Shown: positions 1,571 through 50,619, counted from the first letter of the stretch. The stretch is DNA of 64,000 nt from an uncultured Chloroflexia bacterium (GCA_963703155.1 OY969796.1:3175652-3239651); one strand, 5' to 3'. The notes: generated from the letters alone by a model not told the origin. Numbers and translations are program-made.

Positions 1571-1573
1571 GCG

Positions 1574-3154: not shown

Positions 3155-3160
3155 CGAGGC

Positions 3161-17186: not shown

Positions 17187-18287
<1,101 letters not shown>

Positions 18288-30287: not shown

Positions 30288-31409
30288 TCAGCTGCCGGTC
30301 CAGCCGGTGCCGGCCATCCAGGCCTTCCAGACGTCGGGGTGGGCATCGACCCACTTCTTGGCGGCGTCATCGTCGGACATCTTGTTGGAGATGTCGGTGG
30401 CGACCGCGTTCTGGTCGTCGTTGGTCCACTTGAAGTTCTTGATGAACGCGACGGCGGGACTGCCGCTGTTCACGAAGGTGGTGGAGGCGACCTTGTTGAG
30501 GTTGTACGGCGGGTAGTCGCAGGTCATCGACTTCGCGTTGCTGTCGCAGCCTGCCGTGTAGGCCGGCAGCTGGAGGTGGACCAGCCCGTCGTTGATCTGG
30601 CTGTCGAACCAGTTGGGCTCCCAGTAGTAGGCCAGGATCGGCTTGTTGGCGCCGATGGCGGACTTGATCGCCGCGTCGGAGGCCGCCTCGGAGCCCGAGT
30701 AGACGACCTTGAAGTTGAGGCCGAGGCCCTTGACCAGCGCCTCGTCGTTGGTCACGTACGAGGGGTCGCCGTCGAGGATCTGGCCCTTGCCCCCGGACTC
30801 GCTGGTCACGAAGTCAGCCGAGAGCTTGTTGAGGGCAGCCGTGAAGGCAGCGGGAGAGGAGTTGGCCGCCATGAGCTCGGGGTGGGCGTCGGCGTAGTAC
30901 TTGGGGATGAACCAGCCGATGATCCCGACGTTGCCCTGCGAGCCCAGGTCCACCGCGACCTTCTGGTCGGTGATGTACTGCTTGGCGAGGTCCTCGTGGC
31001 CCCAGTTCTCGAGGATCACGTCCACGTCGCCGGTCGGGAAGCCCTGCCAGCTCACCTGCTCGCTCAGGGCCTTGATGCTGGTCGTGCAGCCGAGCTGCGT
31101 CCGGAGCAGGTAGTCCACGACGGCCACGTCGGCCTCGTAGCCCACCCACGGGTTGTCGGCGATGTTGACCGTGCCGCAGGGCGCCATCGAGGTGGCGGCG
31201 GCCTGGCTCGGCGAGGCGGCCGCCGATTCGGGGGCCATGCTCGCGGGCGACGCGGAGGTGGCCGCCGGAGCAGCCGACGCGGGTGTCACGGACGGGCTTG
31301 CGGCGCTGCCGCTGCAGGCCGACACGAGGATTGACAGGACGGCCGCCCCTGCGGCGAGCCGTCGGACGGTGCTGTCTGCGAGATTCAAGCCAGATCCCCT
31401 TCCTTCCAT
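30288..31409 (-). CDS. proX: glycine betaine/proline ABC transporter substrate-binding lipoprotein (ProX/OpuAC)
   Basis: Lipobox LVSAC, Ser/Ala-rich linker, ProX-like SBP domain; downstream of proV and proW. Confidence 0.7.
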   Translation of the reverse strand: MEGRGSGLNLADSTVRRLAAGAAVLSILVSACSGSAASPSVTPASAAPAATSASPASMAPESAAASPSQAAATSMAPCGTVNIADNPWVGYEADVAVVDYLLRTQLGCTTSIKALSEQVSWQGFPTGDVDVILENWGHEDLAKQYITDQKVAVDLGSQGNVGIIGWFIPKYYADAHPELMAANSSPAAFTAALNKLSADFVTSESGGKGQILDGDPSYVTNDEALVKGLGLNFKVVYSGSEAASDAAIKSAIGANKPILAYYWEPNWFDSQINDGLVHLQLPAYTAGCDSNAKSMTCDYPPYNLNKVASTTFVNSGSPAVAFIKNFKWTNDDQNAVATDISNKMSDDDAAKKWVDAHPDVWKAWMAGTGWTGS

Positions 31410-31572
31410 ACCGGCCTCATGCTCCTCCAGGCCGGATCGCGCATTGTGACCTGTCGCGGGCTTCCCCGCTTGCGAGCCCCCGTGCCCGGTGAGCGGGCGG
31501 TCTGCTCTGTGCCGTGTCTCCTCCTGCTTGGCGCCGACCCGGCCGAGGCCCGGCGGACGACGCGGTGGGGCG

Positions 31573-33522
31573 CTATTCCTCCTCGACTCGCCGGACCTCG
31601 CGCCGCGCGCCGGCCCCCTGGGTGATGCGGTCGAGCATCACGCCCAGGAGCACGATGGCAATGGCCGCGGCGAAGCCGACGCCGAAGTCCGTTCCCTGCA
31701 CCAGCCCCTGCACAACCCGGTAGCCGAGCGCCTGGCCGCCGACCAGGCCGCCCACGACGACCATCGCGAGGATCAGCACGACCCCCTGGTTCGTGGCCGC
31801 CAGCAGCGACCGCCGGGCCATGGGCAGCTGGACCTTGGTGATGACCTGGAGCGGAGTCGAGCCCGCGGACTCCGCCGCCTCGGTGGTGGTGGCCGACACG
31901 CCGCGGACGCCGTCCTCGACCAGTCGGATCACCGCCGGGATCGCATAGATGACGGCGGCCAGGATCGCCGTGAAGCGCGACGGCCCGAACAGGGCGAGGG
32001 CGGGGATGAGGTACACGAATGCGGGCATCGTCTGGAGCGCGTCGTTGATCGGGCGGACGATCTGCGAGACCAGGCTTGAGCGGGCGGCCAAGGTCCCGAT
32101 CACCACGCCCACGGCCATCGCGATCGCGACGCCGAACAGCACCTGGGTCAGCGTCTCCATCGCCGGCTCCCAGACCTGGAGCGCCACCACGAGCAGGCCC
32201 GCCAGGACGACCACGACCGCCGCGCGGCGGCCCGTGATGATCAGGGCGAGGCCCGAGGCCAGACCAATGACGAGCCAGAACGGCGACGCCGTCAGCGCGG
32301 TCTGGAGCAGGTCGATCACCCAGCCGCTGGCCGTGTCCTTGACCCAGCTGGTGAGCCACGCGAAGTTGGTGGTGAGCCAGGTGACGAACGCGTTGACCGG
32401 ATCGGCGAAGGAGAGGCTCAGACCGGTCGGGAACTCGTGCCCCCAGGGCTGCGTGATGCCCAGGGCCACGCCCACGACCGCGATCGCCCCTCCCACCGCC
32501 GCCATCTGCCGGTGGGAGGCCTTGGTCACGCGCTCCGCGCCGGTGTGGCGGCGGTCCGAGACCTGGCTCGCGCTCGCCGTGAGCCGGTCGAGGACCATGG
32601 CCAGCAGGACGATGGCGAGGCCCGCATCGAACGAGCCGCCCACATCCTGGATCTCGAGGGCCTTGAGCAGCTTCTCGCCCAGGCCGCCCGCGCCGACGAA
32701 GGCGGTGATGACCACCATCGAGAGCGCCATCATGATCGTCTGGTTGACCGCCAGGCCGATCGTGGTGCGCGCCATCGGCATCTGGACCTTGCGCAGGACC
32801 TGTCGGCCGGTCGAGCCGAGCGAGGTGGCCGCCTCGACCGTCTCGGCCGGGACGCCGCGGATGCCCAGCGCGGTGAGGCGGATGGCGGGCGGGATGGCGT
32901 AGATCATCGTCGCGATCGTCGCCGTCCCGTTGCCGATGAAGAACAGGATCGTCAGCGGGACGAGGTACGCGAACGTGGGCATGATCTGCATCAGGTCCAG
33001 GATCGGCGTCACCACGCGGAGCACGCGGTCGCTGCGGCCGGCCAGAATCCCGATCGGGATGCCGACGACCAGCGACAGGGCGACGGCCACGATCATCTGG
33101 CCGAGCGTGGTCATGGTCGGGTCCCACAGGCCGAGCAGCCCGATCATCACCAGCGCCAGGGCTGCGGCCAGCCCGGTCCGCCAGGTCACGAACACGAAGC
33201 CGAGCGCCCCGGCGATGGCGGTGATGCCGAGCCAGCCGAGCGTCGTCAGCCAGTCGGTCACGAAACCCACGAGCCCCGCTGTGCCGGTCCGGATGGGCGT
33301 GAAGAAGAGCGTGAAGTACCACTCGTTGTGGTGCAGCGCCATCCAGTTCTTGAAGTCGGTCAGGGCCTGGAACAGCGGCGTCTGCGAATCGAACGGCAGC
33401 GTCATCGTGTCGTGGAGCAGCGCGAACAGGACGGCGAATGCCGCGAGCAGGAGCGCAACGGCCTGGGGCTTGGTGATCCGGGGTCGCATCGGTCGCCGGG
33501 CGGCAACCGCGAGCGTTGTCAC
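31573..33522 (-). CDS. proW: fused tandem ProW/OpuAB-type ABC permease (two permease domains in one about 650-aa protein)
   Basis: GTG start overlaps proV stop (GTGA; alternative ATG 33489); two successive permease units each with the EAA-like loop ([20 protein letters not shown] and [20 protein letters not shown]). Confidence 0.75.
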
Positions 33523-34616
33523 GCCTCCGACTCGGTGCCCGCGATGGCCGACAGGATCAGCCGCCGGTCTACCATGCCCACCAGCCTCCCGTCGTCGACA
33601 ACTCTGACCGGGGCGTCCGCGGTGGCTGCAGCGTGGACCGCGGTGCGGATGACGGCGGTCGAGGGGAACTCGGGGCCGTCGAGGCGGTCGTCCGGGCGCA
33701 CCTCGCGCATGATCCAGCCAAGCGTGAGGACGTACGACTTGGGGACGTCCTGGACGAAGTCGGCCACGTAGTCGTCGGCGGGGGCGCCCACGATCTCCTC
33801 GGGCCGGCCGATCTGGACGATCTCGCCCGCCCGCATGATCGCGACGTGGTCGCCCAGCTTGAGCGCCTCGGCGAGGTCGTGGGTGATGAAGATCATCGTC
33901 TTGCCCACCTCGTGGTGGAGCCGGATGACCTCGTTCTGCATGTCCCGCCGGATGAGCGGGTCGAGCGCGCTGAACGGCTCGTCGAACAGCATGACCTCGG
34001 GGTCCACCGCGAGCGCCCGGGCCAGGCCCACCCGCTGCTGCATGCCGCCCGAGAGCTGGTCCGGGTAGCGCATCTCCTGGCCCTCGAGGCCGACGAGCGA
34101 GAGCATGTGGGCCGCCTTGTCGCGGCGCGCCTTCTTGGGCTCGCCGCGGATCTCCAGGCCGAACGCCACGTTGTCGATCACCCGCCGGTGAGGCAGCAGG
34201 CCGAAGTGCTGGAACACCATGGAGAACCGGTGGCGGCGCAGCTCCCGGAGGCGGGCCTGGGACGCCTTGCCGATGTCCTCCTTGTCCAGGAGCACCTCGC
34301 CCGCGGTGGGCTCGATGAGGCGCGTGAGGCAGCGGATGAGCGTGGACTTGCCCGAGCCGGACAGGCCCATCACCACGAACACCTCGCCCGGGCGGACGTC
34401 GAAGCTCACGTCGCGGACGGCCACGTTCGAGCCGGTGGCGAGTCGCAGCTCGTCCCGCGGGAGCTCGGCGAGGGCCGTGCCGATGATCTTGTGCTCGCCG
34501 GGCCCGAAGATCTTCCACAGGCCCTTGACCGAGATCGCCGTCTGGGCGACGGGCTCCTGCGCCGCAGCGAGGCGGGCCTGCGCGAACGGTCCAGGGGCGG
34601 GGAAGGTGGCGGTCAT
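33519..34616 (-). CDS. proV: glycine betaine/proline ABC transporter ATP-binding protein with C-terminal CBS pair (ProV/OpuAA)
   Basis: Walker [19 protein letters not shown], Walker [13 protein letters not shown]-terminal CBS domains. Confidence 0.85.
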
Positions 34617-34782: not shown

Positions 34783-35574
34783 TCATGCCGCCCCCCTCCG
34801 GTCGCGCCAGCCGAGCCTGCGCCCGATCTCGTCGCCCGCCGCCATCACGGCCGCGGCAACGGCCTCGAACCGATCCGGGCCCAGCCGGTACGAGGGGCCA
34901 GACGCGCTGACCGCGGCCACCACGGCGCCGTCGTGGCCGCGGATGGGCGCCGCGATCGCATTGAGCCCCACCTCCAGCTCTTCGCGCGTGGAGGCCCAGC
35001 CGGACGCCGCCACGCCGGCAAGCTCGCGCTCGAGGGCGGAGCGGTCGGTGATGGTCGTCGGCGTGAAGCGCTCCAGCGGTCGGGCCAGCAGGCGGGCGCG
35101 CTCCGCGGGGTCGGAGGAGGACAGCAGCACCTTGCCGCTCGAGGTGGCGTGGAGCGGGGTCCGCTGGCCCACCCAGTTCTGGGTCGCGACGGTGGCGCCG
35201 CCGAGCACCTGGTCCAGGTTGACCACCGCATCGCCCTCGAGGCGGGCCACGTTGACGGTCTCCCCCACCTCGGCGGCCAGGCGGCGCGAGACGGGCCGGC
35301 TCTGCTCCACCAGGTCGAGGCGTCCGGCGGTGGCGCCAGCGAGACGGACGATCCCGAAGCCGAGGCGGTAGCGCCCGCGCTCGCTGACCTGCTCCACGAG
35401 GCCGCGGGCCTCGAGCACGGCGAGCAGCCGGTGGGCGGTGCTCTTGTGCACGCCCAGGGCCGCGGCCAAGTCGGTCACGGCTCCGTCCTCGCGCTCGGCG
35501 AGGTACTCGAGCACGTCGATGGCGCGGTCCACCGACTGGATCACGGCCGGCACCTCGAGGCGGCCCTCAGCCAT
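34783..35574 (-). CDS. IclR-family transcriptional regulator (last gene of corrinoid methyltransferase operon)
   Basis: ATG 35574 inside longer track ORF; HTH plus IclR effector domain; start overlaps upstream gene stop. Confidence 0.8.
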   Translation of the reverse strand: MAEGRLEVPAVIQSVDRAIDVLEYLAEREDGAVTDLAAALGVHKSTAHRLLAVLEARGLVEQVSERGRYRLGFGIVRLAGATAGRLDLVEQSRPVSRRLAAEVGETVNVARLEGDAVVNLDQVLGGATVATQNWVGQRTPLHATSSGKVLLSSSDPAERARLLARPLERFTPTTITDRSALERELAGVAASGWASTREELEVGLNAIAAPIRGHDGAVVAAVSASGPSYRLGPDRFEAVAAAVMAAGDEIGRRLGWRDRRGAA

Positions 35575-36106
35575 GCCCGGCCCCCGCTCCCCCGGCGACC
35601 CCGGACGACAGCGCCGCGACGGCTTCCGCCAGTGATGCCAAGTGCCCGGCGTCGTGGCGCAGGACCTCGCCCAGAAGCCCCACCGCGTCCAGTTCACCGA
35701 ACCTGGCGTGGACCCCCGTGCAGCGCAGGGCGGCCTCGTCCATCGCCGCGACGGTCTCCACCACCTTGGCCCGAGCGGCGCAGAAGGCTTCGGACGCCTC
35801 GTCCGGGCTCGGGTCGGGTCGCCCGGCGAGGTCTGGCTCCGTCCACGGCCAGGACGGGTGGTCGTGCGCCGCCAGCTGGCGGAAGCGCGGCGTCCAGACC
35901 TCGGCGTCGACCGCCGCCAGGTGGACGACGATCCGGACCGGCGTCCAGCCGCCGTCAGGCCCCGGCGCGGTCGCCGCGTCGCCCAGCCTGTGGAGCATCG
36001 CGCCCGCCCACTCCGCCGCCTCACGCAGCGCGGGCACGAGGGCGGCCACGTCGGCAGCGCGGTTGGCGGCTCGTCCGTCGTCAGGGTCCGGGGCGGCCAG
36101 CGGCAT
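35567..36106 (-). CDS. DinB/YfiT-like (TIGR03083-type) putative metal-binding protein
   Basis: 179 aa from ATG 36106; DinB_2-like helical bundle with His-containing motifs (HLAAVDAEV, HDHPSW, HDAGHLASL); 2 bp after MttB stop. Confidence 0.45.
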   Translation of the reverse strand: MPLAAPDPDDGRAANRAADVAALVPALREAAEWAGAMLHRLGDAATAPGPDGGWTPVRIVVHLAAVDAEVWTPRFRQLAAHDHPSWPWTEPDLAGRPDPSPDEASEAFCAARAKVVETVAAMDEAALRCTGVHARFGELDAVGLLGEVLRHDAGHLASLAEAVAALSSGVAGGAGAGHG

Positions 36107-36108
36107 CG

Positions 36109-37650
36109 TCACTCCGCCGCGTCGGGCATGGACGCCTTCCGGCGCGCGATGAAGTCGAGGAGCGCCTCGTCCACCGCGGGGTCGATCGCCGGCGCCTCGT
36201 AGTCGGCGAGCATCTTCTTCCAGACTCGATTGGCGCGCGCCCGGGCGTCGAGCTCGCCGTCCTCGAGCCACTGCTCGTAGCTGTTGTTGTCGGCGATCTC
36301 CGAGCGGTAGAACGCGGTCTCGAAGTTGGCGAGGGTGTGCGCGGTGCCCAGGAAGTGCTGGCCCGGGCCGTTCTCGCGGATCGCGTCGAGCGCCTGCCCG
36401 TTCTCCGAGAGGTCCACGCCCTTGGCGAACACGCTCATCATCCCGAGCTGGTCGGCGTCCATGACGAACTTCTCGTAGCCGATCGTCAGGCCGCCCTCGA
36501 GCCAGCCCGCGGCGTGGAGGACGAAGTTCGTCCCGGCGAGGACCGTGGGCTGGAGCGTCGCCGCCGACTCATAGGCCGCCTGCGCGTCCTCGATCTTGGA
36601 CGCGGTCAGGCTGCCGCCGGAGCGGAACGGGACGCCGAGACGGCGGGCGAGCGCCGCCATCGTGTACAGCACCAGCGCGGGCTCCGGCGTGCCGAAGGTG
36701 GGCGCGCCCGACTGCATCGACATCGAGCTCGCGAAGGAGCCCAGGATCACCGGCGCCCCGGGGCGCACGAGCTGGGCGAGGGTCATGCCGCCGAGCGCCT
36801 CGGCGAGAGTCTGGGCGGCGACGCCGGCGGAGGTCACCGGGGCCATGGCGCCCGCCAGGATGAACGGCGTGACGATGCACGCCTGGTTCGCCGCCGCGTA
36901 GGTCCGCAGCGCGCCGAGCATCGTCGCGTCCCAGACGAGCGGCGAGTTGGCGTTGATGAGGCTGGTGACGACCGCGTTCTGGTCGACGAACTCCGCGCCG
37001 AACACGATCTTGGCCATCTCGACGGTGTCGGCGGCGCGCTCGGGCGCGGTGACCGAGCCCATGAACGGCTTGTCCGAGTACCGGATGTGGGCGTAGACCA
37101 TGTCGAGGTGGCGCTTGTTGACGGCGACGTCAGTGGGCTCGCAGACCGTGCCGCCCGAGTGGTGGAGGTTCGGCGAGGCGTAGGCGAGCTTGACGAAGTT
37201 CTCGAAGTCCTCGAGCGTCGCGTACCGCCGACCGCCCTCAAGGTCCCGCACGAACGGCGAGCCGTAATTGGGCGCGAAGACCGTGTTCATCCCACCGATC
37301 GTCACGCTGCGCTCGGGGTTCCGGGCGTACTGGACGTAGGTGCGCGGGGCGCTGGCCTGGACGATCGAGCGGCACAGGCCGGCCGGGAATCGGACCCGCT
37401 CGCCGTTGACATCGGCGCCGGCGTCGCGCAGCAGGCGGAGCGCCTCCGGATCACCGCGGAACTCGAGGCCCACCTCCTGGAGGATGACGTCGGCGTTGTG
37501 CTCGATGAGCGAGAGGCCCTCCTCGGAGAGCACCTCGAACGGCGCCATGGTCCGGGTGAGGAACGGGGCGCGCGCCACGGCCGAATGGGCACGGGCCGCC
37601 TGGCGCCCGGCACGACCGCCGCTGCGCCGGCCGTGGAGATCGTCGGTCAT
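36109..37650 (-). CDS. MttB-superfamily (trimethylamine methyltransferase family, non-pyrrolysine) substrate:corrinoid methyltransferase; MtgB-like, predicted glycine betaine or related quaternary amine
   Basis: 513 aa uninterrupted (no in-frame amber); Arg-rich N-terminus RRSGGRAGRQAARA typical of non-Pyl MttB homologues; TIM-barrel family sequence; ATGA coupling to upstream gene. Confidence 0.75.
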   Translation of the reverse strand: MTDDLHGRRSGGRAGRQAARAHSAVARAPFLTRTMAPFEVLSEEGLSLIEHNADVILQEVGLEFRGDPEALRLLRDAGADVNGERVRFPAGLCRSIVQASAPRTYVQYARNPERSVTIGGMNTVFAPNYGSPFVRDLEGGRRYATLEDFENFVKLAYASPNLHHSGGTVCEPTDVAVNKRHLDMVYAHIRYSDKPFMGSVTAPERAADTVEMAKIVFGAEFVDQNAVVTSLINANSPLVWDATMLGALRTYAAANQACIVTPFILAGAMAPVTSAGVAAQTLAEALGGMTLAQLVRPGAPVILGSFASSMSMQSGAPTFGTPEPALVLYTMAALARRLGVPFRSGGSLTASKIEDAQAAYESAATLQPTVLAGTNFVLHAAGWLEGGLTIGYEKFVMDADQLGMMSVFAKGVDLSENGQALDAIRENGPGQHFLGTAHTLANFETAFYRSEIADNNSYEQWLEDGELDARARANRVWKKMLADYEAPAIDPAVDEALLDFIARRKASMPDAAE

Positions 37651-39686
37651 CGTTCCTCCTCGTGGGCGGCGACGGGCTGGCGCCGCCGGCGTCGTTCGGT
37701 TCGCTCGTCCCGGCCCGCACGGCCCGCCGCCGGCCGCGCCGGCAGCTCCACCACGCGCCCGAGGTTGGGGTACGCAGCGGTCCTGTGCGGGATCGCCAGC
37801 GCATCGACGAAGTGCTCCTGGAAGCGCGGCTCGATCGCGGTCTCGAGCTTGTTGACCTCGCGGACCACGGTCTCGATCTCGCGCCGCGCCGCGCCCGACA
37901 GCAGCGCGATCAGGGCGCCGGCGCCCGCGGCGTTGCCCGCCGACCCCACCCGCGCGAGGTCACAGTCGGGCACCAGGCCCAGCACCATGGCGTGCGTCGT
38001 GTCGATGTGGCTCCCGAAGGCGCCCGCGAGGCGGACCTCGTCGACCGCGTCCACGCCGTAGGCGTCCATCAGCAGCCGCGCCCCCGCGTACAGGGCGGCC
38101 TTGGCGAGCTGGATCGCGCGAACGTCGTTCTGGGTGACGAGGACGCGCGGCTCGCCCTCGTGCAGGACGTAGCTGAAGGTGCGCCCGTCGGCGATCACGC
38201 GGGGTGTCCTTGCGGCCAGCGACCCGTCGATGATCCCGTCAGCGGTGATGACCCCCGCGAGGAACAGCTCCGCGATCACCTCGATGATCCCCGAGCCGCA
38301 GATGCCGGTGATCCCGGTGTCGGCAGTGACCTCGGCGAAGCCCGGCTCGTCGGACCACAGCGTGGAGCCGATGACACGGAAGCGCGGCTCGAGCGTTCCG
38401 CGGTCGATGCGGACGCGCTCGATGGCGCCCGGCGCGGCGCGCTGCCCGGACGAGATCTGCGCGCCCTCGAACGCCGGCCCCGTGGGGCTGGACGCCGCGA
38501 GCAGGCGGTGGCGGTTGCCCAGCACGAGCTCCGCGTTCGTCCCCACGTCCACGATGAGCGTGACGGCCTCTGCGAGGTGCGGCTGCTCGGAGAGGATCAC
38601 GCCGGCGGTGTCGGCGCCCACGTGCCCGGCGATGCAGGGCAGCACGTAGACGCGGGCGCCCGGGTGGACGCCGAGCCTGAGCTCCGCAGCGGTGGTGTGG
38701 ACGGCGCGCTCGGTCGCCAGCGTGAACGGCGCCTGGCCCAGCGGCGTCGGGTCGAGGCCCAGCACGAGGTGGTGCATGATCGGGTTGCCGACGAGCGCGA
38801 TCTCGAGGATCTCCTCGCGCTCCACGCCGGCGGTCGTCGCCAGGCTGCCGATCAGCTCCCGCAGCGCCGTGCGCACTGCCGTGGTCATCTCGGCCGCGCC
38901 CCGCTCGTGGAGCATGGCGTACGAGACCCGGCTCATCAGGTCCTCGCCAAAGCGGATCTGGGGGTTCATCACGCCGGCCGACGCGAGGACGGTCCCGTCG
39001 AGCAGGCTTGCCAGGTGCGCCGCGATGGTGGTCGACCCGATGTCGACCGCCACGCCGTACGCGCGGTCGCGGAACCCTGGCCACGCGGCGATCAGCGTGT
39101 GGCCGTCGTGGACGGCGACCGTCACCTTGCCGGCGCCCGCCTCGACCGCGGCCTGGAGCGCGCGCGTCGCCGCAAGGTCGGCATCGAGCGTCTCGATCCC
39201 CCACTCCCGCGCCAGCGCCTGCTGCACGCGCACGAGGTCAGAGGCGGGCGAGGCGAGGTCTGGCAGCGCGGCCTCGACGTAGTGGAGCCTCGTGACCGGG
39301 TCGAGCTCGAACGGGCGGACCTCGAGCTCCTTGCGGACCACCTGGCGGTGCACCTGCGAGGCGGCCGGCACGTCGATGACGGCGTCACCCAGCAGGCCAG
39401 CCGTGCAGGCGAGCCGGCGCTTGGGCGCCAGGCCCTTGCGCGCGGCGTAGTCGGCCTCCACCGCGTCGGGCGCCGACACGTTGGCCGGGGCCGAGGTGAT
39501 GCCGTGCTTGGGGAACTCGCCGACGCTCTGCTCCACCTGGCAGCGGCCGCAGATCCCCCGCCCGCCGCACACCGAATCGATGTCCACGCCCAGCTTGCGG
39601 GCCGCGTCGAGCACGGTCGTGCCCACGGGGAAGTGCCCCCGGCGGCCCGAGGGCGTGAAGATCAGCAGGGGATCGGGCGATCCCAC
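37647..39686 (-). CDS. corrinoid reductive activation protein (N-terminal 2Fe-2S ferredoxin + ASKHA/DUF4445 ATPase; RamA/RACo-like)
   Basis: Plant-type ferredoxin Cys pattern CGGRGICGRCQ...C; large ASKHA-like ATPase body; coordinates taken from ORF track (the printed sequence appears off by one base in this region by my count). Confidence 0.7.
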   Translation of the reverse strand: MGSPDPLLIFTPSGRRGHFPVGTTVLDAARKLGVDIDSVCGGRGICGRCQVEQSVGEFPKHGITSAPANVSAPDAVEADYAARKGLAPKRRLACTAGLLGDAVIDVPAASQVHRQVVRKELEVRPFELDPVTRLHYVEAALPDLASPASDLVRVQQALAREWGIETLDADLAATRALQAAVEAGAGKVTVAVHDGHTLIAAWPGFRDRAYGVAVDIGSTTIAAHLASLLDGTVLASAGVMNPQIRFGEDLMSRVSYAMLHERGAAEMTTAVRTALRELIGSLATTAGVEREEILEIALVGNPIMHHLVLGLDPTPLGQAPFTLATERAVHTTAAELRLGVHPGARVYVLPCIAGHVGADTAGVILSEQPHLAEAVTLIVDVGTNAELVLGNRHRLLAASSPTGPAFEGAQISSGQRAAPGAIERVRIDRGTLEPRFRVIGSTLWSDEPGFAEVTADTGITGICGSGIIEVIAELFLAGVITADGIIDGSLAARTPRVIADGRTFSYVLHEGEPRVLVTQNDVRAIQLAKAALYAGARLLMDAYGVDAVDEVRLAGAFGSHIDTTHAMVLGLVPDCDLARVGSAGNAAGAGALIALLSGAARREIETVVREVNKLETAIEPRFQEHFVDALAIPHRTAAYPNLGRVVELPARPAAGRAGRDERTERRRRRQPVAAHEEER

Positions 39687-39699
39687 GACCGGCTCGGCC

Positions 39700-40611
39700 T
39701 CAGCCAGCCGCGACCGCGGACCGGCGCTTGTTCACGCGCCGCTCGCGACCATCAGCCGCCTCGGCATTGGGATCCCGGTTGGCGCGGATCCAGGCGGCGG
39801 CGTCAGCGTCGTTGCCCAGCAGCACGTCGGCGGCCATGATGGCCTTGCGGACGTCGGGCAGCAGCGGGTTGGTGATCGCCGAGGTCAGGCCGTTGCTGAT
39901 GGCCATGGCCAGGAACGCCGAGTTGATCCCCTCGCGGGCCGGCAGGCCGAAGCTGACATTCGACGCGCCGCAGGTGGTGTTCACCTTGAGCTCGTCGCGC
40001 AGGCGGTTGAGCAGCGCGAACACCTGGCGGCCGGCGGTGCGCATGGCGCCGATGGGCATGACCAGCGGGTCCACGATCACGTCCTCGCGCGGAATCCCGT
40101 GGTCGGCGGCGCGCTCGACGATCCGCTTGGCCACGGCGAACCGCACGTCGGGGTCGATGGAGATGCCGGTGTCGTCGTTGGAGATGGCCACCACCGCCGC
40201 GCCGTACTTCTTCACCAGCGGCAGGACGCGCTCCATGCGCTCCTCCTCGCCGGTGACCGAGTTGACCAGCGCCTTTCCCTGGTAGACCGAGAGCCCGGCC
40301 TCGAGCGCGTCCATGATCGACGAGTCGATCGAGAGCGGCAGGTCGGTCAGCGACTGGACGAGCTTGACGGTGCGGGCCAGGATCCCGGGCTCGTCGGCGA
40401 GCGGGATGCCGGCGTTGACGTCGAGCATGTGGGCGCCGGCCTCGACCTGGGCCAGCACGTCGCGCTCCACTCGGCTGAAGTCGCCGTTGCGCATCTCCTC
40501 GCCCAGCAGCTTGCGGCCGGTGGGGTTGATCCGCTCGCCGATGACCACGAACGGGAGGTCACCGCTGATGACCACCTCGCGGGTCGCCGAGCTGATGACG
40601 GTGCGGGTCAT
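39700..40611 (-). CDS. pterin-binding methyltransferase (MtrH/MtgA-like methylcorrinoid:tetrahydrofolate methyltransferase)
   Basis: 303 aa TIM-barrel pterin-binding (DHPS-like) pattern; ATGA coupling with upstream small gene. Confidence 0.6.
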   Translation of the reverse strand: MTRTVISSATREVVISGDLPFVVIGERINPTGRKLLGEEMRNGDFSRVERDVLAQVEAGAHMLDVNAGIPLADEPGILARTVKLVQSLTDLPLSIDSSIMDALEAGLSVYQGKALVNSVTGEEERMERVLPLVKKYGAAVVAISNDDTGISIDPDVRFAVAKRIVERAADHGIPREDVIVDPLVMPIGAMRTAGRQVFALLNRLRDELKVNTTCGASNVSFGLPAREGINSAFLAMAISNGLTSAITNPLLPDVRKAIMAADVLLGNDADAAAWIRANRDPNAEAADGRERRVNKRRSAVAAG

Positions 40612-40958
40612 GGGGCCTCCGTGGGGACTGGCGCCGGGGATGCGGTCGGCGTGGCGGGCGGGGCGGCCTCGAAACCGCGGTTGGCGGTGAGCGCAGCGAG
40701 GCGCGCCCGGGGGAATTCGGCTTCGATGCGGGCGACCTCGGCGGCCACCTCCGCCTCCAGGTCCTCACCGCAGGGCCGGCTGGTTCGGCGCCACTCGGCG
40801 AGGTACTCGTCCATGTCCTTCTTGCCGGCCCTGGTGGCGGCCTTGTCGATGGCCATCTGGAACCGGAGCGGCAGCATCGCCTTGGCCGTGCGGCGGCTCT
40901 CCTTGGCCGTGACCTGGGCCGGGATGTCGCGCCACGAGATCAGCGTGAGGGTGGCCAT
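40608..40958 (-). CDS. small conserved accessory protein ('virulence factor'-family-like) of corrinoid methyltransferase clusters
   Basis: 116 aa; translationally coupled on both sides; position between DUF1638 and MtrH-like genes as in alphaproteobacterial MttB clusters (family name from memory). Confidence 0.4.
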   Translation of the reverse strand: MATLTLISWRDIPAQVTAKESRRTAKAMLPLRFQMAIDKAATRAGKKDMDEYLAEWRRTSRPCGEDLEAEVAAEVARIEAEFPRARLAALTANRGFEAAPPATPTASPAPVPTEAP

Positions 40959-41710
40959 CAGGCGACGGCCTCGTCCGGGTCGTCTGCGGCGTCCGGGGCG
41001 GTCGTTCCCGGGTCCGCGTCCCTCCCCGCGCCGTCCGCGTCGGCCACCCCGCGCCCGTCGCCTGCCTTCACGGCCAGTCCGCCGGCCAGCCCCGCAATCG
41101 CGGTGCCAAGCTCGCCATACCCCGTGGGCCGATGCTCGAACGCCAGTCCCAGCCGGACGGCCGCCCGGCGCGCCATGTCCAGGACCTCGGGGTCGTCGTG
41201 CTGGGAGAGGTAGACCACCCGCTGGTAGCCCGCGAAGTACACGGGCAGCAGCTCCGGGTGGCGGTCGAGCCCGAGGCCGCGGACCACCAGCGCATCGAAG
41301 CTGCGCGCCAGGAAGTCCGTCAGGTAGAAGGTGCCCGGCTCCTCAGCCGCGAGTGCCGTGAACGCTGCGAGGCCCGTGAACGCGGCATAGCAGTGGGCGC
41401 CCGGCAGGCGGTCGGCGCCATGCTTGGCCAGCACCGTGTCCAGCGCGCCGCCTGTGCCGCAGTCCGCGTAGGCCACGAACACCCGGTCGTAGCCCGCGCC
41501 GAGCTCCGAGAGCTTCGCGTCGACCGCGGGCGCGATCTGCTCCGGCCGGTTGTGGAGCTGCGCGGGCAGGCAGCGCACGTCGACGGCCGCGGCCAGCCCG
41601 TTGCGCTCGACGAGCTCGAGCAGCTCGCGGGCGAGCGCACCACAGCCCACGACGAGCGTGGGGGCGTGGGCGGCAGGGGACGCGCCGGGCTGGCGCCCGC
41701 GATCGGTCAC
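40958..41710 (-). CDS. DUF1638-domain protein
   Basis: 250 aa; GTG start in GTGA overlap with corrinoid protein stop; conserved YADCGTGG...PGAHCY pattern. Confidence 0.5.
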   Translation of the reverse strand: MTDRGRQPGASPAAHAPTLVVGCGALARELLELVERNGLAAAVDVRCLPAQLHNRPEQIAPAVDAKLSELGAGYDRVFVAYADCGTGGALDTVLAKHGADRLPGAHCYAAFTGLAAFTALAAEEPGTFYLTDFLARSFDALVVRGLGLDRHPELLPVYFAGYQRVVYLSQHDDPEVLDMARRAAVRLGLAFEHRPTGYGELGTAIAGLAGGLAVKAGDGRGVADADGAGRDADPGTTAPDAADDPDEAVA

Positions 41711-42384
41711 GCGACGAACTTGCGGGCCGTTTCTGCGGCGATGGCGGCGTCGCGGCAGTAGGCGTCGGCGCCGACCGCCATCGCGAACTCCTCGTTGAGC
41801 GGCGCGCCGCCCACGAGGACCACGTACTTCTCGCGGATGCCGCGGTCCTTGAGCGCCTGGATCACGACCTTCATGTACGGCATCGTGGTGGTGAGCAGCG
41901 CGGACATGCCCAGGATGTCGGGCTTGTGCTCCTCGAGCGCGGCGAGGAACTTCTCCGCGTCCGTGTTGACGCCGAGGTCGATGACCTCGAAGCCCGCGCC
42001 CTCGAGCATCATCCCGACCAGGTTCTTGCCGATGTCGTGGATGTCGCCCTTCACCGTGCCGATGACGACCTTGCCGACGGGCTTGGCGCCGGTCTCGGCG
42101 AGCAGCGGACGCAGGATGGCCATGCCGGCCTTCATCGCGTTGGCGGCGAGCAGCACCTCCGGGACGAACAGGATGCCGTCGCGGAAGTCGACGCCCACGA
42201 TGCGCATGCCCTCGACGAGTGCCTCGGCAAGGACCTTGTCGGCGCCCCAGCCGCGCCCGAGAAGGATCTTGGTGCCCTCGACCGTCTCCGGCGCGAGGCC
42301 GTCATACAGGTCGTCATGCATCTGGCTGACCAGTTCCTCGTCGCTCAGCGAGGCGAGGTCCAGTTCCTGCTCGTCGGTTCCCAT
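41707..42384 (-). CDS. cobalamin-binding corrinoid protein (B12-binding domain plus N-terminal cap; MtgC/MtbC-like)
   Basis: ATG 42384; B12-binding motifs DIHDIGKN (DxHxxG), SALLTT (SxL) and VLVGGAP (GG). Confidence 0.85.
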   Translation of the reverse strand: MGTDEQELDLASLSDEELVSQMHDDLYDGLAPETVEGTKILLGRGWGADKVLAEALVEGMRIVGVDFRDGILFVPEVLLAANAMKAGMAILRPLLAETGAKPVGKVVIGTVKGDIHDIGKNLVGMMLEGAGFEVIDLGVNTDAEKFLAALEEHKPDILGMSALLTTTMPYMKVVIQALKDRGIREKYVVLVGGAPLNEEFAMAVGADAYCRDAAIAAETARKFVA

Positions 42385-42664: not shown

Positions 42665-42807
42665 ACCTATCTCCCCCCGGAGACGGTTATCCAATCGTCG
42701 CCGCGGCACTCGTGCTCAGTGCCCAGCGCGGGGACCCTTCTGACTAACCCCCGGGAGGAGATAGGAGCGCAATTCGCGTGACAAGCCGCGTCGGGAGGAG
42801 ATACGAG
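42665..42807. repeat. three copies of the TATCTCC-CCGG-GAGGAGATA palindromic motif (42665..42687 inverted/degenerate; 42747..42765; 42789..42807 direct)
   Basis: Direct inspection of the 463-bp intergenic region between gntR 3' end and the corrinoid operon start. Confidence 0.55.
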
Positions 42808-42847
42808 TGCGATTGCCGGGAGCGACGTACGCCAGCGCGGGCGGCCC

Positions 42848-43504
42848 TCAGGCCTCGGCGGCGCTCAACCGGTCCTGGGTGTACTGGTAGTGCGAGCCCA
42901 CCGCATCGCAAGCGGCAGAGGCGTCGCGAGCGCGGATCCCGTCGGCGATGTGCCGGTGGAACTCGACCGGTGGCGTCCAGCCGAGCGAGGCGTGGGTCCC
43001 GAGCGCGGTCCGCATCAGCAGCACCGTCTGCGAGGCCAACTCCTCGTAGAGCGCGAGCAGCCGGCCGTTGCCCGACATCCGGCAGTAGGCGCGGTGGAAC
43101 GCCATGTCGGCATCCCAGGCGGCAGCCAGGTCGCCAGCCGCGTAGGCGTGCTCGGTGGCGTCGAGCGCCGCGTACAGCCCGGCGATGTCCTCGTCGGTGG
43201 CGAGCTCGATGGCCTGGCGGACGGCCGCCTCCTCGATCGCCCGGCGGATCACGTAGACCTCTGCCAGGTCGCGCTCCGTCAGCGAGGAGACGAAGGTCCC
43301 CCGCCGGGGCAGGTCCACCGCGAGGCCGGACCGGGCCAACTCGGCCAGCGCGTCTCGCACGGGCCCGCGCGAGACCCCGAAGCGCTCCGCGAGCTCGGTC
43401 TCCACCAGCCGGGTGCCAGCCGGCAGGCGCCCGTCGAGGATCTCGTCGCGCAGCAGCTCCGCGACCGATTCCCAGAGTTGCTTGTGGGTGAACGAAGCCC
43501 TCAT
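42848..43504 (-). CDS. GntR-family (FadR-subfamily) transcriptional regulator
   Basis: ATG 43504; N-terminal GntR winged HTH (ERFGVSRGPVRDAL) and all-helical FCD-like C-terminus; divergent from DMGDH. Confidence 0.8.
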   Translation of the reverse strand: MRASFTHKQLWESVAELLRDEILDGRLPAGTRLVETELAERFGVSRGPVRDALAELARSGLAVDLPRRGTFVSSLTERDLAEVYVIRRAIEEAAVRQAIELATDEDIAGLYAALDATEHAYAAGDLAAAWDADMAFHRAYCRMSGNGRLLALYEELASQTVLLMRTALGTHASLGWTPPVEFHRHIADGIRARDASAACDAVGSHYQYTQDRLSAAEA

Positions 43505-43522
43505 CACAGTGCAGGATCGCCG

Positions 43523-43552
43523 TTGACACCGCGGATTGTCAACAGTTAGCAT
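43523..43552 (+). promoter_or_regulatory. GntR-type operator palindrome TTGACAccgcggatTGTCAA overlapping a sigma70-like promoter (-35 TTGACA, 18-bp spacer, -10 TAGCAT) for the DMGDH-etfBA operon
   Basis: Perfect 6-bp inverted arms with the t.GT...AC.a core typical of GntR/FadR sites, in the 115-bp divergent gntR/DMGDH intergenic region. Confidence 0.6.
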
Positions 43553-43619
43553 CCCGCCACTGTCCGCCCCGTCACGGGCTCCCACGCGCGCAACCCCAAT
43601 CCCCCAAGGAGTCGCCTCG

Positions 43620-46127
43620 ATGGCCAGCCTCCCGTCCCACGCCAAGGTCGTGATCATCGGCGCCGGAATCGTCGGCAACAGCATCGCCTACCACCTGGCG
43701 AACCTGGGCTGGAAGGACATCGTCCAGATCGACAAGGGGCCCATGCCCAATCCTGGCGGCTCGACCGGCCACGCCAGCAACTTCATCTACTACGTCGACC
43801 ACAACAAGGAGATGACCGCGCTCACGATCGAGAGCGCCAACCAGTACCGCGCGTGGGACGTGTACACCGAGTGCGGCGGCCTCGAGGTCGCGCGCACCGA
43901 GACGCGCATGAACGAGCTCCGCCGGCGCATGGACTCGGCCAAGAACTGGGGCGTCGACTCGGCTCGCCTGGTCACCCCGGCCGAGATCAAGGAGATGGTC
44001 CCGTTCATCAACGAGGAGATCCTCGTCGGCGGGTTCTGGGTCCCCGAGGTGGGCGTCTGCGACTCGCTCCGCTTCGGCACGATGTGCCGCGAGAAGGCCG
44101 AGGAGATGGGCGCGCTCACGGTCCTCGCCAACACCGAGGTCCTCGACATGGTGGTCGAGGACGAGCGGATCAAGAGCGTCGTGACCACGCGCGGCACCAT
44201 CGACGCCGACTACGTGGTCATCGCCTGCGGCGTCTGGGCGCCCAAGCTGGCCGAGATGGCCGGCGCCCACATCCCGCTGACCCCGGTCGTCCACCAGATG
44301 GCGGACTACGGCCCCGTCCCGATCTTCGAGAAGTCGTCCAAGGCGATCGAGTACCCGATCGTGCGCGACATGGACGTGCTGATGTACGAGCGCCAGGACG
44401 GGATCGGCTTCGAGGTGGGCTCCTACGCCCACCGCTCGATCCTGCACGATCCGGAGGAGATCCCCTCCATCGAGGAGGCGAAGCTCTCCCCGACGGAGCT
44501 GCCCTTCACGCAGGACGACTTCGACCCGCAGCTCGAGGACGCGCTCGAGCTGTTCCCCGAGATCCTCGGCGACGAGCGGGTCGGCCAGAAGTACGCCATC
44601 AACGGCCTGATCGCCCTCACCCCCGACGGCATGCCGCTCCTGGGCGAGACGCCCGAGGTCCAGGGCCTGTGGTCGGCCGCCGCGGTGTGGGTCAAGGAGG
44701 GTCCGGCGGTTGGCAAGTGCATCGCCGAGTGGATGGTCCACGGCGAGCCCTCGATCGACTGCAACCAGAGCGACATCAGCCGCTTCCACGCCCACCAGAA
44801 GACGCGCCAGCACACCAAGCGCCGCGCGTTCGAGGCGTTCCCCAAGACCTACGGCATCGTCCACCCGGCCGAGCAGTACCTCTCCGACCGCCCGCTCCGC
44901 AAGTCGCCGATGTACGACTGGCACCGGGAGCACGACGCGGAGCTGTTCGAGGTCGCCGGCTGGGAGCGGGCGCAGTGGTACAACAGCAACGCCCCGCTGG
45001 TCGAGAAGTACGGCGTCACCACGCGCCCCAACGAGTGGGACGCCCGGTGGTGGAGCCCCATCATCAACGCCGAGCACCTCGCCATGCGCGAGGCGGCGGG
45101 CATCTTCGACCTCTCCGCGTTCGCCGTCTTCGACATTCTGGGCACGGGCGCCCTCGACAGCGTCCAGGGCGTGTGCCTGCGCCAGATGGACGTGGCCGTC
45201 GGCAAGGTGGTGTACACGCCGGTCCTCTCCGAGCGCGGCGGTTTCAAGAGCGACCTCACCGTGATGCGCCTGGGCAAGCACCACTTCCGGGTGGTGACCG
45301 GCGGCGCCCACGGCATGGCCGACCTCAAGTGGTTCAAGGACCACCTGCAGCCCATGGCGTCGATCGTGGACCTCACCGACGCGTACACGACGATCGGCGT
45401 CTGGGGGCCGAAGGCGCGCGACATCGTGCAGTCGATCACCCGGGCCGACATGAGCGGCGCGGCGTTCAAGTTCGGCACCTGTCGCAAGGTCGAGATCGGC
45501 AGCCAGCTCGTGCTGGCCTCGCGGATCAGCTACGTCGGCGACCTCGGCTGGGAGCTCTACGTCCCGATGGAGCAGGGCCAGCGGCTGTGGGACGAGCTGT
45601 GGGCAGCCGGCCAGGCGCATGGCCTGGTGGCCTGCGGCATGGGCGTCTACGGCACGACCGGCCGCCTCGAGAAGGGCTACCGCGCGTACGGCGCGGAGCT
45701 CGACGACGACTACACCGTGGTCGAGGCCGACATGGCGCCGGCGCGGCTCAAGGCACAGGACTTCGTGGGCCGCGACGCCCTGGAGCGCCAGCTGGGCCAG
45801 CCGGCGGCGGCGCGCTGCTGCACCCTCACCGTCGACGACCACACCTCCAAGACTGGCGAGCGTCGCTACATGCTGGGCCGCCAGCCGATCACCCTTGCCG
45901 ACGGCTCCCCGATCACCGACCGCAAGGGCCGCCGCTCGTACGCGACGTCGGCCGGCGCGGGCCCGAGCCTCGGCAAGCACCTGCTGATGGCGTACCTGCC
46001 GCCGGAGCACGCCGTCGAGGGCAACCAGCTCTTCGTCCAGTACTTCGACGAGCTCTACCCCGTCACCGTCGCGCGGGTCGGCGCGCTGCCGCTGTTCGAC
46101 CCCGAGAACGACCGAATCCGGGCCTGA
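43620..46127 (+). CDS. dimethylglycine/sarcosine dehydrogenase family protein (DAO FAD domain + GcvT folate-binding domain)
   Basis: RBS AAGGAG; VVIIGAGIVGNSIAYHL FAD fold; C-terminal aminomethyltransferase (GcvT-like) fold; followed by etfBA. Confidence 0.8.
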   Translation: MASLPSHAKVVIIGAGIVGNSIAYHLANLGWKDIVQIDKGPMPNPGGSTGHASNFIYYVDHNKEMTALTIESANQYRAWDVYTECGGLEVARTETRMNELRRRMDSAKNWGVDSARLVTPAEIKEMVPFINEEILVGGFWVPEVGVCDSLRFGTMCREKAEEMGALTVLANTEVLDMVVEDERIKSVVTTRGTIDADYVVIACGVWAPKLAEMAGAHIPLTPVVHQMADYGPVPIFEKSSKAIEYPIVRDMDVLMYERQDGIGFEVGSYAHRSILHDPEEIPSIEEAKLSPTELPFTQDDFDPQLEDALELFPEILGDERVGQKYAINGLIALTPDGMPLLGETPEVQGLWSAAAVWVKEGPAVGKCIAEWMVHGEPSIDCNQSDISRFHAHQKTRQHTKRRAFEAFPKTYGIVHPAEQYLSDRPLRKSPMYDWHREHDAELFEVAGWERAQWYNSNAPLVEKYGVTTRPNEWDARWWSPIINAEHLAMREAAGIFDLSAFAVFDILGTGALDSVQGVCLRQMDVAVGKVVYTPVLSERGGFKSDLTVMRLGKHHFRVVTGGAHGMADLKWFKDHLQPMASIVDLTDAYTTIGVWGPKARDIVQSITRADMSGAAFKFGTCRKVEIGSQLVLASRISYVGDLGWELYVPMEQGQRLWDELWAAGQAHGLVACGMGVYGTTGRLEKGYRAYGAELDDDYTVVEADMAPARLKAQDFVGRDALERQLGQPAAARCCTLTVDDHTSKTGERRYMLGRQPITLADGSPITDRKGRRSYATSAGAGPSLGKHLLMAYLPPEHAVEGNQLFVQYFDELYPVTVARVGALPLFDPENDRIRA

Positions 46128-46129: not shown

Positions 46130-46894
46130 ATGCGCGTCCTCGTCTGCGTCAAGCGCGTCCCCGCGGTCGCCGGGCGCCTCACCCTCACCGAGGACGAGCG
46201 CGCCCTCGACACCAAGTACGTGGGGTTCCAGGTGGGGCCCCACGAGGAGTGCGCGGTCGAGGAGGCCGTCCGCCTGGTCGAGGCGCACGGCGGCGAGGCC
46301 GTCGTGCTCACCCTGGGCCCGGCCGAGGCGGCCGAGCAGCTGCGCGAGGCGATGGCGATTGGCGCGGCCCGCGCGATCCACCTCGTCACCGACGGCGAGG
46401 AGTGGGACGCCGAGTCCACGGCCGGCGCGATCACTGACGCCCTCCGCGAGGACGAGGCGGCGAACGGCCCGTTCGACCTCGTGCTGCTGGGCAACGAGGC
46501 CGCCGACTCGGGCGGCTACCAGGTGGGCGTGCGCATCGGGCGGGCGCTCGGCCGGCCCGTCGTGACCGGGATCAAGGCGCTGTCGGTGACCGACGGCACC
46601 GCCCGCTGCGAGCAGGAGGCCGCTGGCGGCCGCGACGTCTACGAGGTCCGGACGCCGGCCGTGGTCGCGGTGCTGGAGGGCATCAACCTCCCGCGCTACC
46701 CGTCGGTGCCGGGGCGCATCCGGGCAAAGTCGAAGCCGGTGGCGACGTCGACGCCCGCCCGCCCGGCGCAGCGCCTCGAGATGCTGCGCCTGGTGGTGCC
46801 GGTGACCGAGGCGAAGCAGGCGCAGGTGCTGGGCCACGGGGCCGCCGCCGCGCCCGCCGTGGTGGAGCTCCTCGCCAGCGTGGGGGTGCTCTAG
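46130..46894 (+). CDS. etfB: electron transfer flavoprotein beta subunit
   Basis: MRVLVCVKRVP start typical of EtfB; 2 bp after DMGDH stop. Confidence 0.85.
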   Translation: MRVLVCVKRVPAVAGRLTLTEDERALDTKYVGFQVGPHEECAVEEAVRLVEAHGGEAVVLTLGPAEAAEQLREAMAIGAARAIHLVTDGEEWDAESTAGAITDALREDEAANGPFDLVLLGNEAADSGGYQVGVRIGRALGRPVVTGIKALSVTDGTARCEQEAAGGRDVYEVRTPAVVAVLEGINLPRYPSVPGRIRAKSKPVATSTPARPAQRLEMLRLVVPVTEAKQAQVLGHGAAAAPAVVELLASVGVL

Positions 46895-50587: not shown

Positions 50588-50619
50588 TTCGCCCTCCCGG
50601 GTTGCTGCTGTGAGCCCGG

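Follow-up and report, generated by a model that had tools for sequence, protein, structure and literature searches.

A predicted cobalamin-dependent glycine betaine demethylation operon in a soil Chloroflexota genome, related to the aerobic MtgBCD system

We describe here a corrinoid methyltransferase operon on the minus strand, at positions 34783-42384, of a 64,000-nucleotide (nt) stretch of DNA (hereafter the window, meaning the whole stretch that was analysed) from an uncultured Chloroflexia bacterium (GCA_963703155.1, OY969796.1:3175652-3239651). The explanation that we favor, with a probability of roughly 0.7, is that this operon encodes a three-component cobalamin-dependent glycine betaine:tetrahydrofolate (THF) methyltransferase that has repair machinery of its own and is orthologous to the aerobic MtgBCD system of Alphaproteobacteria. 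Glycine betaine is the best-supported substrate, and probably the right one, because of the pathway context of the operon, the recurrence of that linkage elsewhere, and the genetics of the orthologous system. The aerobic B12 route is itself not new, having been published in 2025, and no new kind of system is at hand; judged by its genes, the window operon is a member of one already described and genetically supported in aerobes.

The operon

Eight open reading frames (ORFs) occupy this interval, all with high third-position GC and none with an internal stop. From first gene to last they are:

41707-42384, minus: mtgC-like corrinoid (cobalamin-binding) protein, first operon gene, 225 aa; B12-binding_2 and B12-binding
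40958-41710, minus: DUF1638 protein, 250 aa, GTG start, 4-nt overlap with the mtgC stop; Pfam match at 2.8e-27
40608-40958, minus: PF13769 "Virulence_fact" protein, 116 aa (4.7e-21), translational coupling on both sides (TGATG, ATGA)
39700-40611, minus: mtgD-like methyl-corrinoid:tetrahydrofolate methyltransferase, a pterin-binding TIM barrel of MeTr/AcsE type, 303 aa; Pterin_bind 6.3e-29
37647-39686, minus: RACo-type ATP-dependent reductive activator, 679 aa; Fer2, RACo_linker, RACo_middle, and RACo_C_ter
36109-37650, minus: non-pyrrolysine MttB-superfamily substrate:corrinoid methyltransferase (MtgB-like), 513 aa; PF06253
35567-36106, minus: DinB_2 superfamily protein, 179 aa, starting 2 nt past the mttB stop; PF12867 2e-09
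34783-35574, minus: IclR-family transcriptional regulator, 263 aa, 8-nt overlap with the DinB_2 stop; HTH_IclR and IclR_C

The junctions in the same order are −4 (GTGA), −1 (TGATG), −4 (ATGA), +13, −4 (ATGA), +2, and −8 nt, and a scan of the window found no terminator-like sites on the minus strand within the operon. As read from the sequence, the module is real, intact, and well conserved, and is predicted to be an operon. Much of this had been anticipated in a first-pass annotation, which placed here a complete module for corrinoid methyl transfer, including a dedicated activase and a non-pyrrolysine MttB enzyme: domain content bears the proposal out, all eight ORFs lie where it put them, the overlaps are of the ATGA, GTGA, and TGATG types that it gave, and the families that it named (MttB, B12-binding, Pterin_bind, DUF1638, and the activase domains) are all matched in Pfam. 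It spoke of seven genes, a miscount, although its own list correctly has eight.

Relation to the aerobic MtgBCD system and distribution

Among solved structures, the MttB protein is closest to PDB 4YYC (741 bits), an MttB-family protein of Sinorhizobium meliloti whose gene adjoins that of a cobalamin-binding protein. Within ~12 kb this S. meliloti cluster holds orthologues of the MttB protein (67% identity to the window), the corrinoid protein (76%), the pterin methyltransferase (63%), the ASKHA activase (58%), the DUF1638 protein (51%), and the PF13769 protein (49%); the stretch also holds MetF/MetV, and bmt lies ~6 kb past the MttB gene. Mausz et al. (PNAS 2025, PMC12478193) describe this cluster as MtgBCDE together with two modules for reactivation. 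In aerobic Ruegeria pomeroyi, mtgC and mtgD knockouts neither grow on nor consume glycine betaine, a requirement backed by complementation as well as by knockout, and glycine betaine, choline, and carnitine induce two PF06253 proteins, a RamA-like protein, and DUF1638 (PMC12478193). Orthologues of the MtgB, MtgC, and MtgD proteins are encoded in the window, as are a RamA-like activase and DUF1638, at 51-76% identity to the S. meliloti proteins; the link to the R. pomeroyi proteins (SPO2108/SPO2134, SPO2160, and SPO1863) runs through the S. meliloti cluster assigned to the same system. Given the published R. pomeroyi knockouts and complementation, the earlier description of this chemistry as inferred in alphaproteobacteria is outdated, and the accompanying suggestion of an oxygen-tolerant cobalamin route agrees both with the aerobic genes of the host (see "Host") and with the aerobic MtgBCD system published in 2025.

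Loci were fetched with the MttB protein and are identified below by L numbers; the counts of distribution cover those of 15 kb or longer. The order mtgC-DUF1638-PF13769-mtgD-RACo-mttB is kept in six of six Chloroflexota and 19 of 23 Actinomycetota loci, and the same six genes occur, often with mttB divergent, in 10 of 22 Pseudomonadota loci; the cassette is conserved in 35 of the 51 long loci from the three main phyla, and its arrangement is not due to chance. Dimethylglycine, choline, or betaine genes stand beside it in 15 of the 23 long Actinomycetota loci. MetF/MetV accompany the cassette in Pseudomonadota only, and three Actinomycetota loci (L035, L074, and L075) have an MtgE-like gene beside it. 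Relatives of the MttB protein are encoded at no fewer than 586 places in species-representative genomes.

One Chloroflexota locus (L007:11500-15700) has further genes directly after that for MttB: pterin-binding and corrinoid genes of weak similarity (32% and 39%), which form a second set, and then MtgE-like (34%) and MetF-like (29%) genes. This set may be a separate split methionine synthase beside the betaine cassette.

Pathway context and proposed mechanism

The genes around the operon form a choline and betaine island:

30288-34616, minus: betaine/choline-family ATP-binding cassette (ABC) transporter, 166 nt downstream of the IclR gene, made up of the next three genes
33519-34616, minus: ProV-like ATPase; ABC_tran; TIGR01186 353 bits against a cutoff of 326.6
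31573-33489, minus: fused double permease; two BPD_transp_1 domains; TIGR03416 choline permease 410 bits against a cutoff of 363
30288-31409, minus: OpuAC-type binding protein; OpuAC
42848-43684, minus: GntR/FCD regulator upstream of mtgC; GntR and FCD
~43599-46127, plus: dimethylglycine oxidase/dehydrogenase-like gene, divergent from the GntR/FCD gene, 842-863 aa; DAO, FAO_M, GCV_T, and GCV_T_C
46130-46894, plus: electron transfer flavoprotein (ETF) beta; ETF
46897-47856, plus: ETF alpha; ETF and ETF_alpha
50620-52284, minus: choline dehydrogenase BetA; TIGR01810 815 bits against a cutoff of 732
49139-50617, minus: aldehyde dehydrogenase adjoining BetA; betaine aldehyde dehydrogenase (BADH) model 389 bits against a cutoff of 668.6

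In the PDB, the dimethylglycine oxidase-like protein best matches 1PJ5, a dimethylglycine oxidase from Arthrobacter, over the full length at 488 bits. The aldehyde dehydrogenase falls below the BADH cutoff and is assigned that role by position only. With this proviso the island is predicted to encode the conversion of choline through betaine aldehyde to glycine betaine, and that of dimethylglycine to sarcosine; the step from glycine betaine to dimethylglycine is left open by the flanking genes, and the MttB module would therefore fill a pathway hole. The 64 kb contain neither a GbcAB-like Rieske oxygenase nor a BHMT-like gene of homocysteine S-methyltransferase type. Betaine transport and dimethylglycine oxidation had both been placed nearby in the first-pass annotation, and both were found.

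Domain assignments in the following scheme come from sequence, and the chemistry is borrowed from characterised homologues. Glycine betaine would enter through the adjacent ABC transporter or arise from choline through the action of BetA and the aldehyde dehydrogenase. The MttB-family enzyme would bind it, and Co(I) of the corrinoid protein would take one N-methyl group, leaving dimethylglycine and methyl-Co(III); the MeTr-type enzyme would then move the methyl group to THF, yielding 5-methyl-THF and regenerating Co(I). Oxidation of Co(I) to inactive Co(II) would be frequent in an aerobe, and the RACo-type activase would re-reduce it with ATP, probably helped by DUF1638 and possibly by the PF13769 protein. 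The dimethylglycine oxidase-like flavoprotein, whose gene is divergent, would oxidise the dimethylglycine and pass electrons to ETF. The earlier idea that N-methyl groups are channelled into the THF pool is plausible, although no MetF lies in the 64 kb.

Two of the closest relatives of the window (L081 and L083) have lost the whole betaine/choline ABC transporter, of which a 99-aa OpuAC remnant persists (12727-13026, against window 30288-34616); L082 and the window keep it. This indicates a recent gene loss beside the operon.

The MttB-family enzyme and its substrate

The 513-aa enzyme matches PF06253 over the entire profile (1-500 of 500; 768 bits, 3e-231). Its subtype was judged by bit scores to four solved members of the family and by residue mapping through HMMER alignments. 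D. hafniense (Desulfitobacterium hafniense) MtgB (2QNE and 9YCE) scores 425 bits at 45.5% identity, and the pyrrolysine-containing MttB (Pyl-MttB) of Methanosarcina barkeri (7XCL) 112 bits; Leu348 aligns with the pyrrolysine ("X") of the latter, and the gene has no in-frame TAG or other internal stop. The first-pass annotation was right to call the enzyme non-pyrrolysine, and the possibility that it had raised against itself, of an in-frame amber or a trimethylamine (TMA)-specific pyrrolysine enzyme, did not materialize.

Mutagenesis and a structure with bound glycine betaine have defined the active site of D. hafniense MtgB, where the trimethylammonium group is contacted through cation-pi interactions by Y97 and F356 and the carboxylate is held by R312 and H348 (Picking et al. 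2026, PMC13080624). These and two neighboring positions map as follows:

MtgB Y97: window Y129 (conserved)
MtgB R312: window R343 (conserved)
MtgB H348: window H379 (conserved)
MtgB F356: window Gly387 (not conserved)
MtgB Y355: window Gly386
MtgB Ile352: window Trp383

Three of the four residues that contact glycine betaine are kept, among them the full carboxylate-binding pair, R343 and H379 being invariant in the clade. The signature Y-R-L-H-W-G-G is invariant in 77 of 85 homologous MttB matches from the fetched loci, and Trp383 is invariant across the clade in the same loci; a Tyr129/Trp383 pair may bind glycine betaine here in place of the Desulfitobacterium pair. The label "MtgB-type" that the enzyme had first been given holds for Y129, R343, and H379 and breaks down at F356, replaced by Gly387.

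Some cassettes have second MttB genes beside them (L025, L037, L047, and L068), 42-61% identical, which keep R, H, and W and have the equivalent of Tyr129 or Leu348 changed (to T, G, or F). These paralogues are candidates for other quaternary-amine specificities with a shared corrinoid protein.

Several observations weigh against the favored explanation. One member of the aromatic pair is lost, F356 being Gly387 here, and Y355 is likewise glycine (Gly386); in D. hafniense MtgB, exchanging either of two aromatics, F356 among them, raised the Km several hundred-fold (PMC13080624). Identity does not fix specificity in this family, since MtyB and MtcB are 53% identical and prefer different substrates. 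The permease scores above the threshold of a model for choline transporters, and choline may therefore be what the transporter carries. The 4YYC-like clade has no assayed member, and the R. pomeroyi knockouts covered MtgC and MtgD but not the MttB paralogues (PMC12478193). MetF, MetV, MtgE, and MetH were not found in the 64-kb window; 5-methyl-THF may be oxidised by a MetF encoded elsewhere or may go into methionine synthesis.

Most of these points bear on whether the same corrinoid machinery might serve an MttB enzyme for some other quaternary amine (proline betaine, carnitine, gamma-butyrobetaine, choline, or phosphocholine). F356 and its neighbor Y355 are both replaced by glycine, the choline-type permease would suit such a role, and the 45.5% identity of the window enzyme to D. 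hafniense MtgB is below that of the 53% pair that already differs in substrate; moreover, equivalents of R312 and H348 are also retained in enzymes for other acidic quaternary amines (PMC13080624). We nevertheless regard this as unlikely. The flanking genes make glycine betaine and consume dimethylglycine, leaving only the step between them open, and the linkage recurs in other phyla; Y97 is kept, and its change to T or G in the 42-61% paralogues suggests that it is those that have other substrates; and the orthologous system is required for growth of R. pomeroyi on glycine betaine.

A second alternative, somewhat less probable again, likens the core (corrinoid protein, MeTr-type enzyme, RACo, and DUF1638) to the split cobalamin-dependent methionine synthase of Phaeobacter inhibens: its main task would be to carry methyl groups from methyl-THF via the corrinoid protein to homocysteine, and the MttB enzyme would be an additional, optional source of methyl groups. 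MtgC, MtgD, RamA-like, and DUF1638 proteins are needed to make methionine in P. inhibens and R. pomeroyi, and dual function with MtgE is the published model (PMC12478193; Price et al. 2018, PMC5764234), so this role is compatible with the glycine betaine system that we favor; the MtgE-like genes beside the three Actinomycetota cassettes noted above also fit it. The 64-kb window, by contrast, has no homocysteine-binding MtgE/Bmt-like gene, and an operon set amid choline and betaine catabolic genes with dedicated regulators fits a catabolic, inducible role better than a housekeeping one in making methionine.

The TMA:corrinoid methyltransferase system that public annotation would suggest (JGI and NCBI names of homologues read "trimethylamine--corrinoid protein Co-methyltransferase," and TIGR02369 is the sole NCBIfam match) is highly improbable, and a TMA identity for the MttB protein was rejected: the TIGR02369 score of 271 bits falls short of the cutoff (525), the gene lacks an amber codon and leucine stands for pyrrolysine, the match to Pyl-MttB is weak beside that to MtgB, and D. 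hafniense MtgB does not use TMA.

Corrinoid protein, pterin methyltransferase, and activase

The remaining catalytic components support the favored glycine betaine system by their domain types. The corrinoid protein matches B12-binding (1.8e-29) and B12-binding_2 (2.2e-13) in Pfam, and comparison with PDB 1Y80 (187 bits) places the motifs of base-off/His-on cobalamin binding: DxHxxG as GDIHDIG, SxL in MSALL, and GG in VGGAPL. It falls below the cutoffs of both NCBIfam MtgC models, which are built on anaerobes (NF047995, 169.6 against 310; NF047996, 208.6 against 370), consistent with the published view of aerobic MtgC as a lineage distinct from that of anaerobes (PMC12478193).

The pterin enzyme is, by sequence, of MeTr/AcsE/MetH type ("MtgD" in the 2025 nomenclature). 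It passes the MeTr/AcsE-type model NF005719 (354 bits against 259) and fails the MtrH model NF002142 (23.7 against 287), scores that overturn an earlier "MtrH/MtgA-like" label; its best PDB matches are MeTr of Carboxydothermus hydrogenoformans and of M. thermoacetica (2YCI and 1F6Y) and the MetH folate domain, and no D. hafniense MtgA chain is among its PDB matches at E ≤ 1e-10.

For the activase, the predicted 2Fe-2S plus ASKHA architecture was confirmed by four Pfam domains and by a full-length alignment to RACo (PDB 3ZYY; residues 8-636 to 6-623, 290 bits), and an N-terminal [2Fe-2S] ferredoxin domain with CX5CX2C...C can be read in the sequence. Scores lie below the cutoffs for RamA (TIGR04270, 97.6 against 500) and AcsV (351 against 800). 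On these matches it is a RACo-type rather than a RamA-type activase.

Accessory proteins

Two small proteins are embedded in the cassette. DUF1638 has invariant C23, H53, D83, C84, H106, and C107, and its model is alpha/beta (Rossmann-like) at a predicted local distance difference test score (pLDDT) of 81.7, with generic structural neighbors only. The 116-aa PF13769 protein belongs to a family of 789 clusters at 50% identity (E ≤ 1e-3) and is modeled at pLDDT 92.8 as three strands, two helices, a strand, and two helices; a structure search found no solved relative of this model.

It is possible, at a little under even odds, that aerobic corrinoid methyltransferase systems have in the PF13769 protein a dedicated component that has gone unrecognised, one acting physically with RACo, DUF1638, and the pterin enzyme, for example as an adaptor or protector in reactivation under oxygen. 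The proposal draws on its conserved position inside the cassette across three phyla in the fetched loci, on the S. meliloti orthologue, which adjoins MetF/MetV, on fusions to RACo (P0369 and P0417), DUF1638 (P0430), and Pterin_bind (P0484) in other predicted proteins, which are metagenome gene calls and possibly artefacts in some cases, and on a confident fold with no solved relative. No mention of PF13769 was found in the literature searched, Mausz et al. 2025 (PMC12478193) included. The three closest relatives (L081-083, ~90% nucleotide identity) argue against an essential role: they carry in-frame deletions of residues 1-15 and 33-77, most of the protein, with the other operon genes intact. 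These deletions (L081:6187-7035 and the same positions in L082 and L083, against window 40608-41034) remove the invariant W9, R10, P13, F33, D38, and Y52 and fuse the PF13769 remnant to DUF1638.

We assign the DinB_2 protein no role in the module and record its placement only: its linkage to the cassette is sporadic in relatives (L005, L007, and L031, ~40%), and in the closest relatives a shorter ORF of 127 aa fills its position.

Regulation

Two features lie in the leader upstream of mtgC:

42473-42445, minus: promoter-like site TGGACA-17-TATTGT (consensus scan)
42442-42426, minus: palindrome GTTGCGCAATCCGCAAC, candidate operator just past the −10 element, ~40-60 nt upstream of mtgC

The sigma-70-like consensus scan returned two sites against 0.1 expected. 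The palindrome GTTGCGCAATCCGCAAC is identical in L081-083 and persists in L002 in the form TTGCGCGATACGCAA, although the remainder of the leader has diverged; we infer its operator function from this alone. The in-operon IclR protein and the GntR/FCD protein encoded upstream are the likely regulators of the module.

Many Chloroflexota and Actinomycetota cassettes (L001, L003, L005, L009-L012, L014, L032, L044, L065, L068, L070, and others) have a divergent IclR gene and a motif GTTCCAnnATACGG...GTTCCnCATnGTGGAAC (TTCCAC...GTGGAA-type) upstream of mtgC. The window lineage has instead an IclR gene inside the operon, a GntR/FCD gene upstream, and a different palindrome (TTGCGCAATCCGCAA). An in-operon IclR gene is also found in L002 and L081-083, and in most other lineages it is divergent and upstream of mtgC, which suggests that regulation was rewired in the window lineage. 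A direct repeat TATCTCCTCCC, in two copies ~48 nt apart, lies at 42750-42815 (minus) in the non-conserved part of the GntR-mtgC leader.

A cobalamin riboswitch was considered and rejected, the 463-nt leader upstream of mtgC giving no Rfam match either at the gathering threshold or at E ≤ 1.

Host

The genome had first been described as actinobacterium-like, a description that its nearest relatives contradict. NCBI MHB8959494.1, a protein of a "Candidatus Limnocylindrales" metagenome-assembled genome (MAG), shares 97% identity with the MttB protein, and among the MttB matches listed the best are from Limnocylindrales and Chloroflexia MAGs (78-85%), with Actinomycetota orthologues at 70-76% only. 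The named homologues of the window leucyl aminopeptidase (PepA, a housekeeping protein unrelated to the operon) are all from Limnocylindrales or Chloroflexota. Three independent assemblies (L081-083) are 84-91% identical in nucleotides to the window over 21 kb, including unrelated flanks (peptidase M23, nucleotidyl transferase, YbjN, and QRPTase), and because the flanking genes share this identity the Chloroflexota affinity does not reflect mere horizontal transfer of the cassette. By its sequence, the host is a Limnocylindrales-like member of the Chloroflexota, aerobic, high in GC, and from soil. Use of oxygen follows from the genes for an intradiol dioxygenase and a flavin monooxygenase in the window; choline dehydrogenase is counted with these two among its O2-dependent enzymes.

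An aromatic catabolic cluster of protocatechuate/4-hydroxybenzoate type at 3-5000 (Lyase_1, carboxymuconolactone decarboxylase, FAD_binding_3 monooxygenase, intradiol dioxygenase, and IclR) shows O2-dependent metabolism in the host. A second B12 enzyme within the 64 kb is a class II B12-dependent ribonucleotide reductase, whose N-terminal part is cut by the window end (62720-64000, plus); no cobalamin riboswitch was found upstream of it at the Rfam gathering threshold. The sole Rfam match of the window at that threshold is a malK-III RNA (17089-17189, plus; 78.9 bits against 50), lying directly upstream of, and overlapping the start of, a MalK-like ABC ATPase ORF (17154-18287). Between QRPTase and YbjN, two long ORFs with high third-position GC (21504-26533, minus) give no match in Pfam at E ≤ 1e-6 and have counterparts, at a conserved position, in the genes of 704 and 871 aa in L081 and L083, likewise with no Pfam family.

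Significance

If our reading is right, aerobic B12-dependent glycine betaine demethylation extends from marine Proteobacteria to soil Chloroflexota of Limnocylindrales-like affinity. The compact cassette is also widespread among MAGs of Actinomycetota and Gammaproteobacteria. B12 demand and osmolyte turnover may be coupled in soils as has been proposed for the ocean. The public name "trimethylamine methyltransferase" would mislead metabolic reconstructions toward TMA use or anaerobic methylotrophy. Two questions have become concrete: how substrate is bound in an enzyme lacking F356, and what DUF1638 and the PF13769 protein do.

Comparison with known systems

Pyl-MttB of M. barkeri (7XCL) shares the PF06253 family and fold with the window enzyme, which differs in having Leu348 in place of pyrrolysine, in the low score between the two (112 bits), and probably in substrate class.

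D. hafniense MtgB is closer, being likewise a non-pyrrolysine MttB-superfamily TIM barrel with leucine at the pyrrolysine position and the equivalents of Y97, R312, and H348; it has F356 where the window protein has glycine. In the D. hafniense system (Ticak et al. 2014) methyl groups pass through a corrinoid protein to THF, a route predicted here from the genes; unlike that organism, the window host is an aerobe, and its predicted pathway is not tied to anaerobic respiration or acetogenesis.

The activase resembles RACo of C. hydrogenoformans (3ZYY) in its ferredoxin, linker, middle domain, and ASKHA ATPase. It differs in that it would serve a methyltransferase corrinoid protein rather than CoFeSP, in scoring below both the AcsV cutoff and that for RamA of methanogens, and in being encoded together with DUF1638 and PF13769; neither of these is known to be needed by the RACo systems of acetogens.

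The nearest counterpart is the aerobic MtgBCD(E) system of R. pomeroyi, P. inhibens, and S. meliloti, with which the window operon shares a PF06253 enzyme, a small corrinoid protein, a MeTr-type enzyme, a ferredoxin plus DUF4445 (RACo-like) activase, DUF1638, linkage to dimethylglycine catabolism, and an aerobic host. The window host belongs to the Chloroflexota, a phylum not mentioned in PMC12478193; neither MetF/MetV nor MtgE is near the operon, and the cassette has an embedded PF13769 gene, not discussed in the literature searched. Its regulators are an in-operon IclR and a GntR/FCD protein, and whereas the R. pomeroyi components are scattered, the window genes form one translationally coupled operon.

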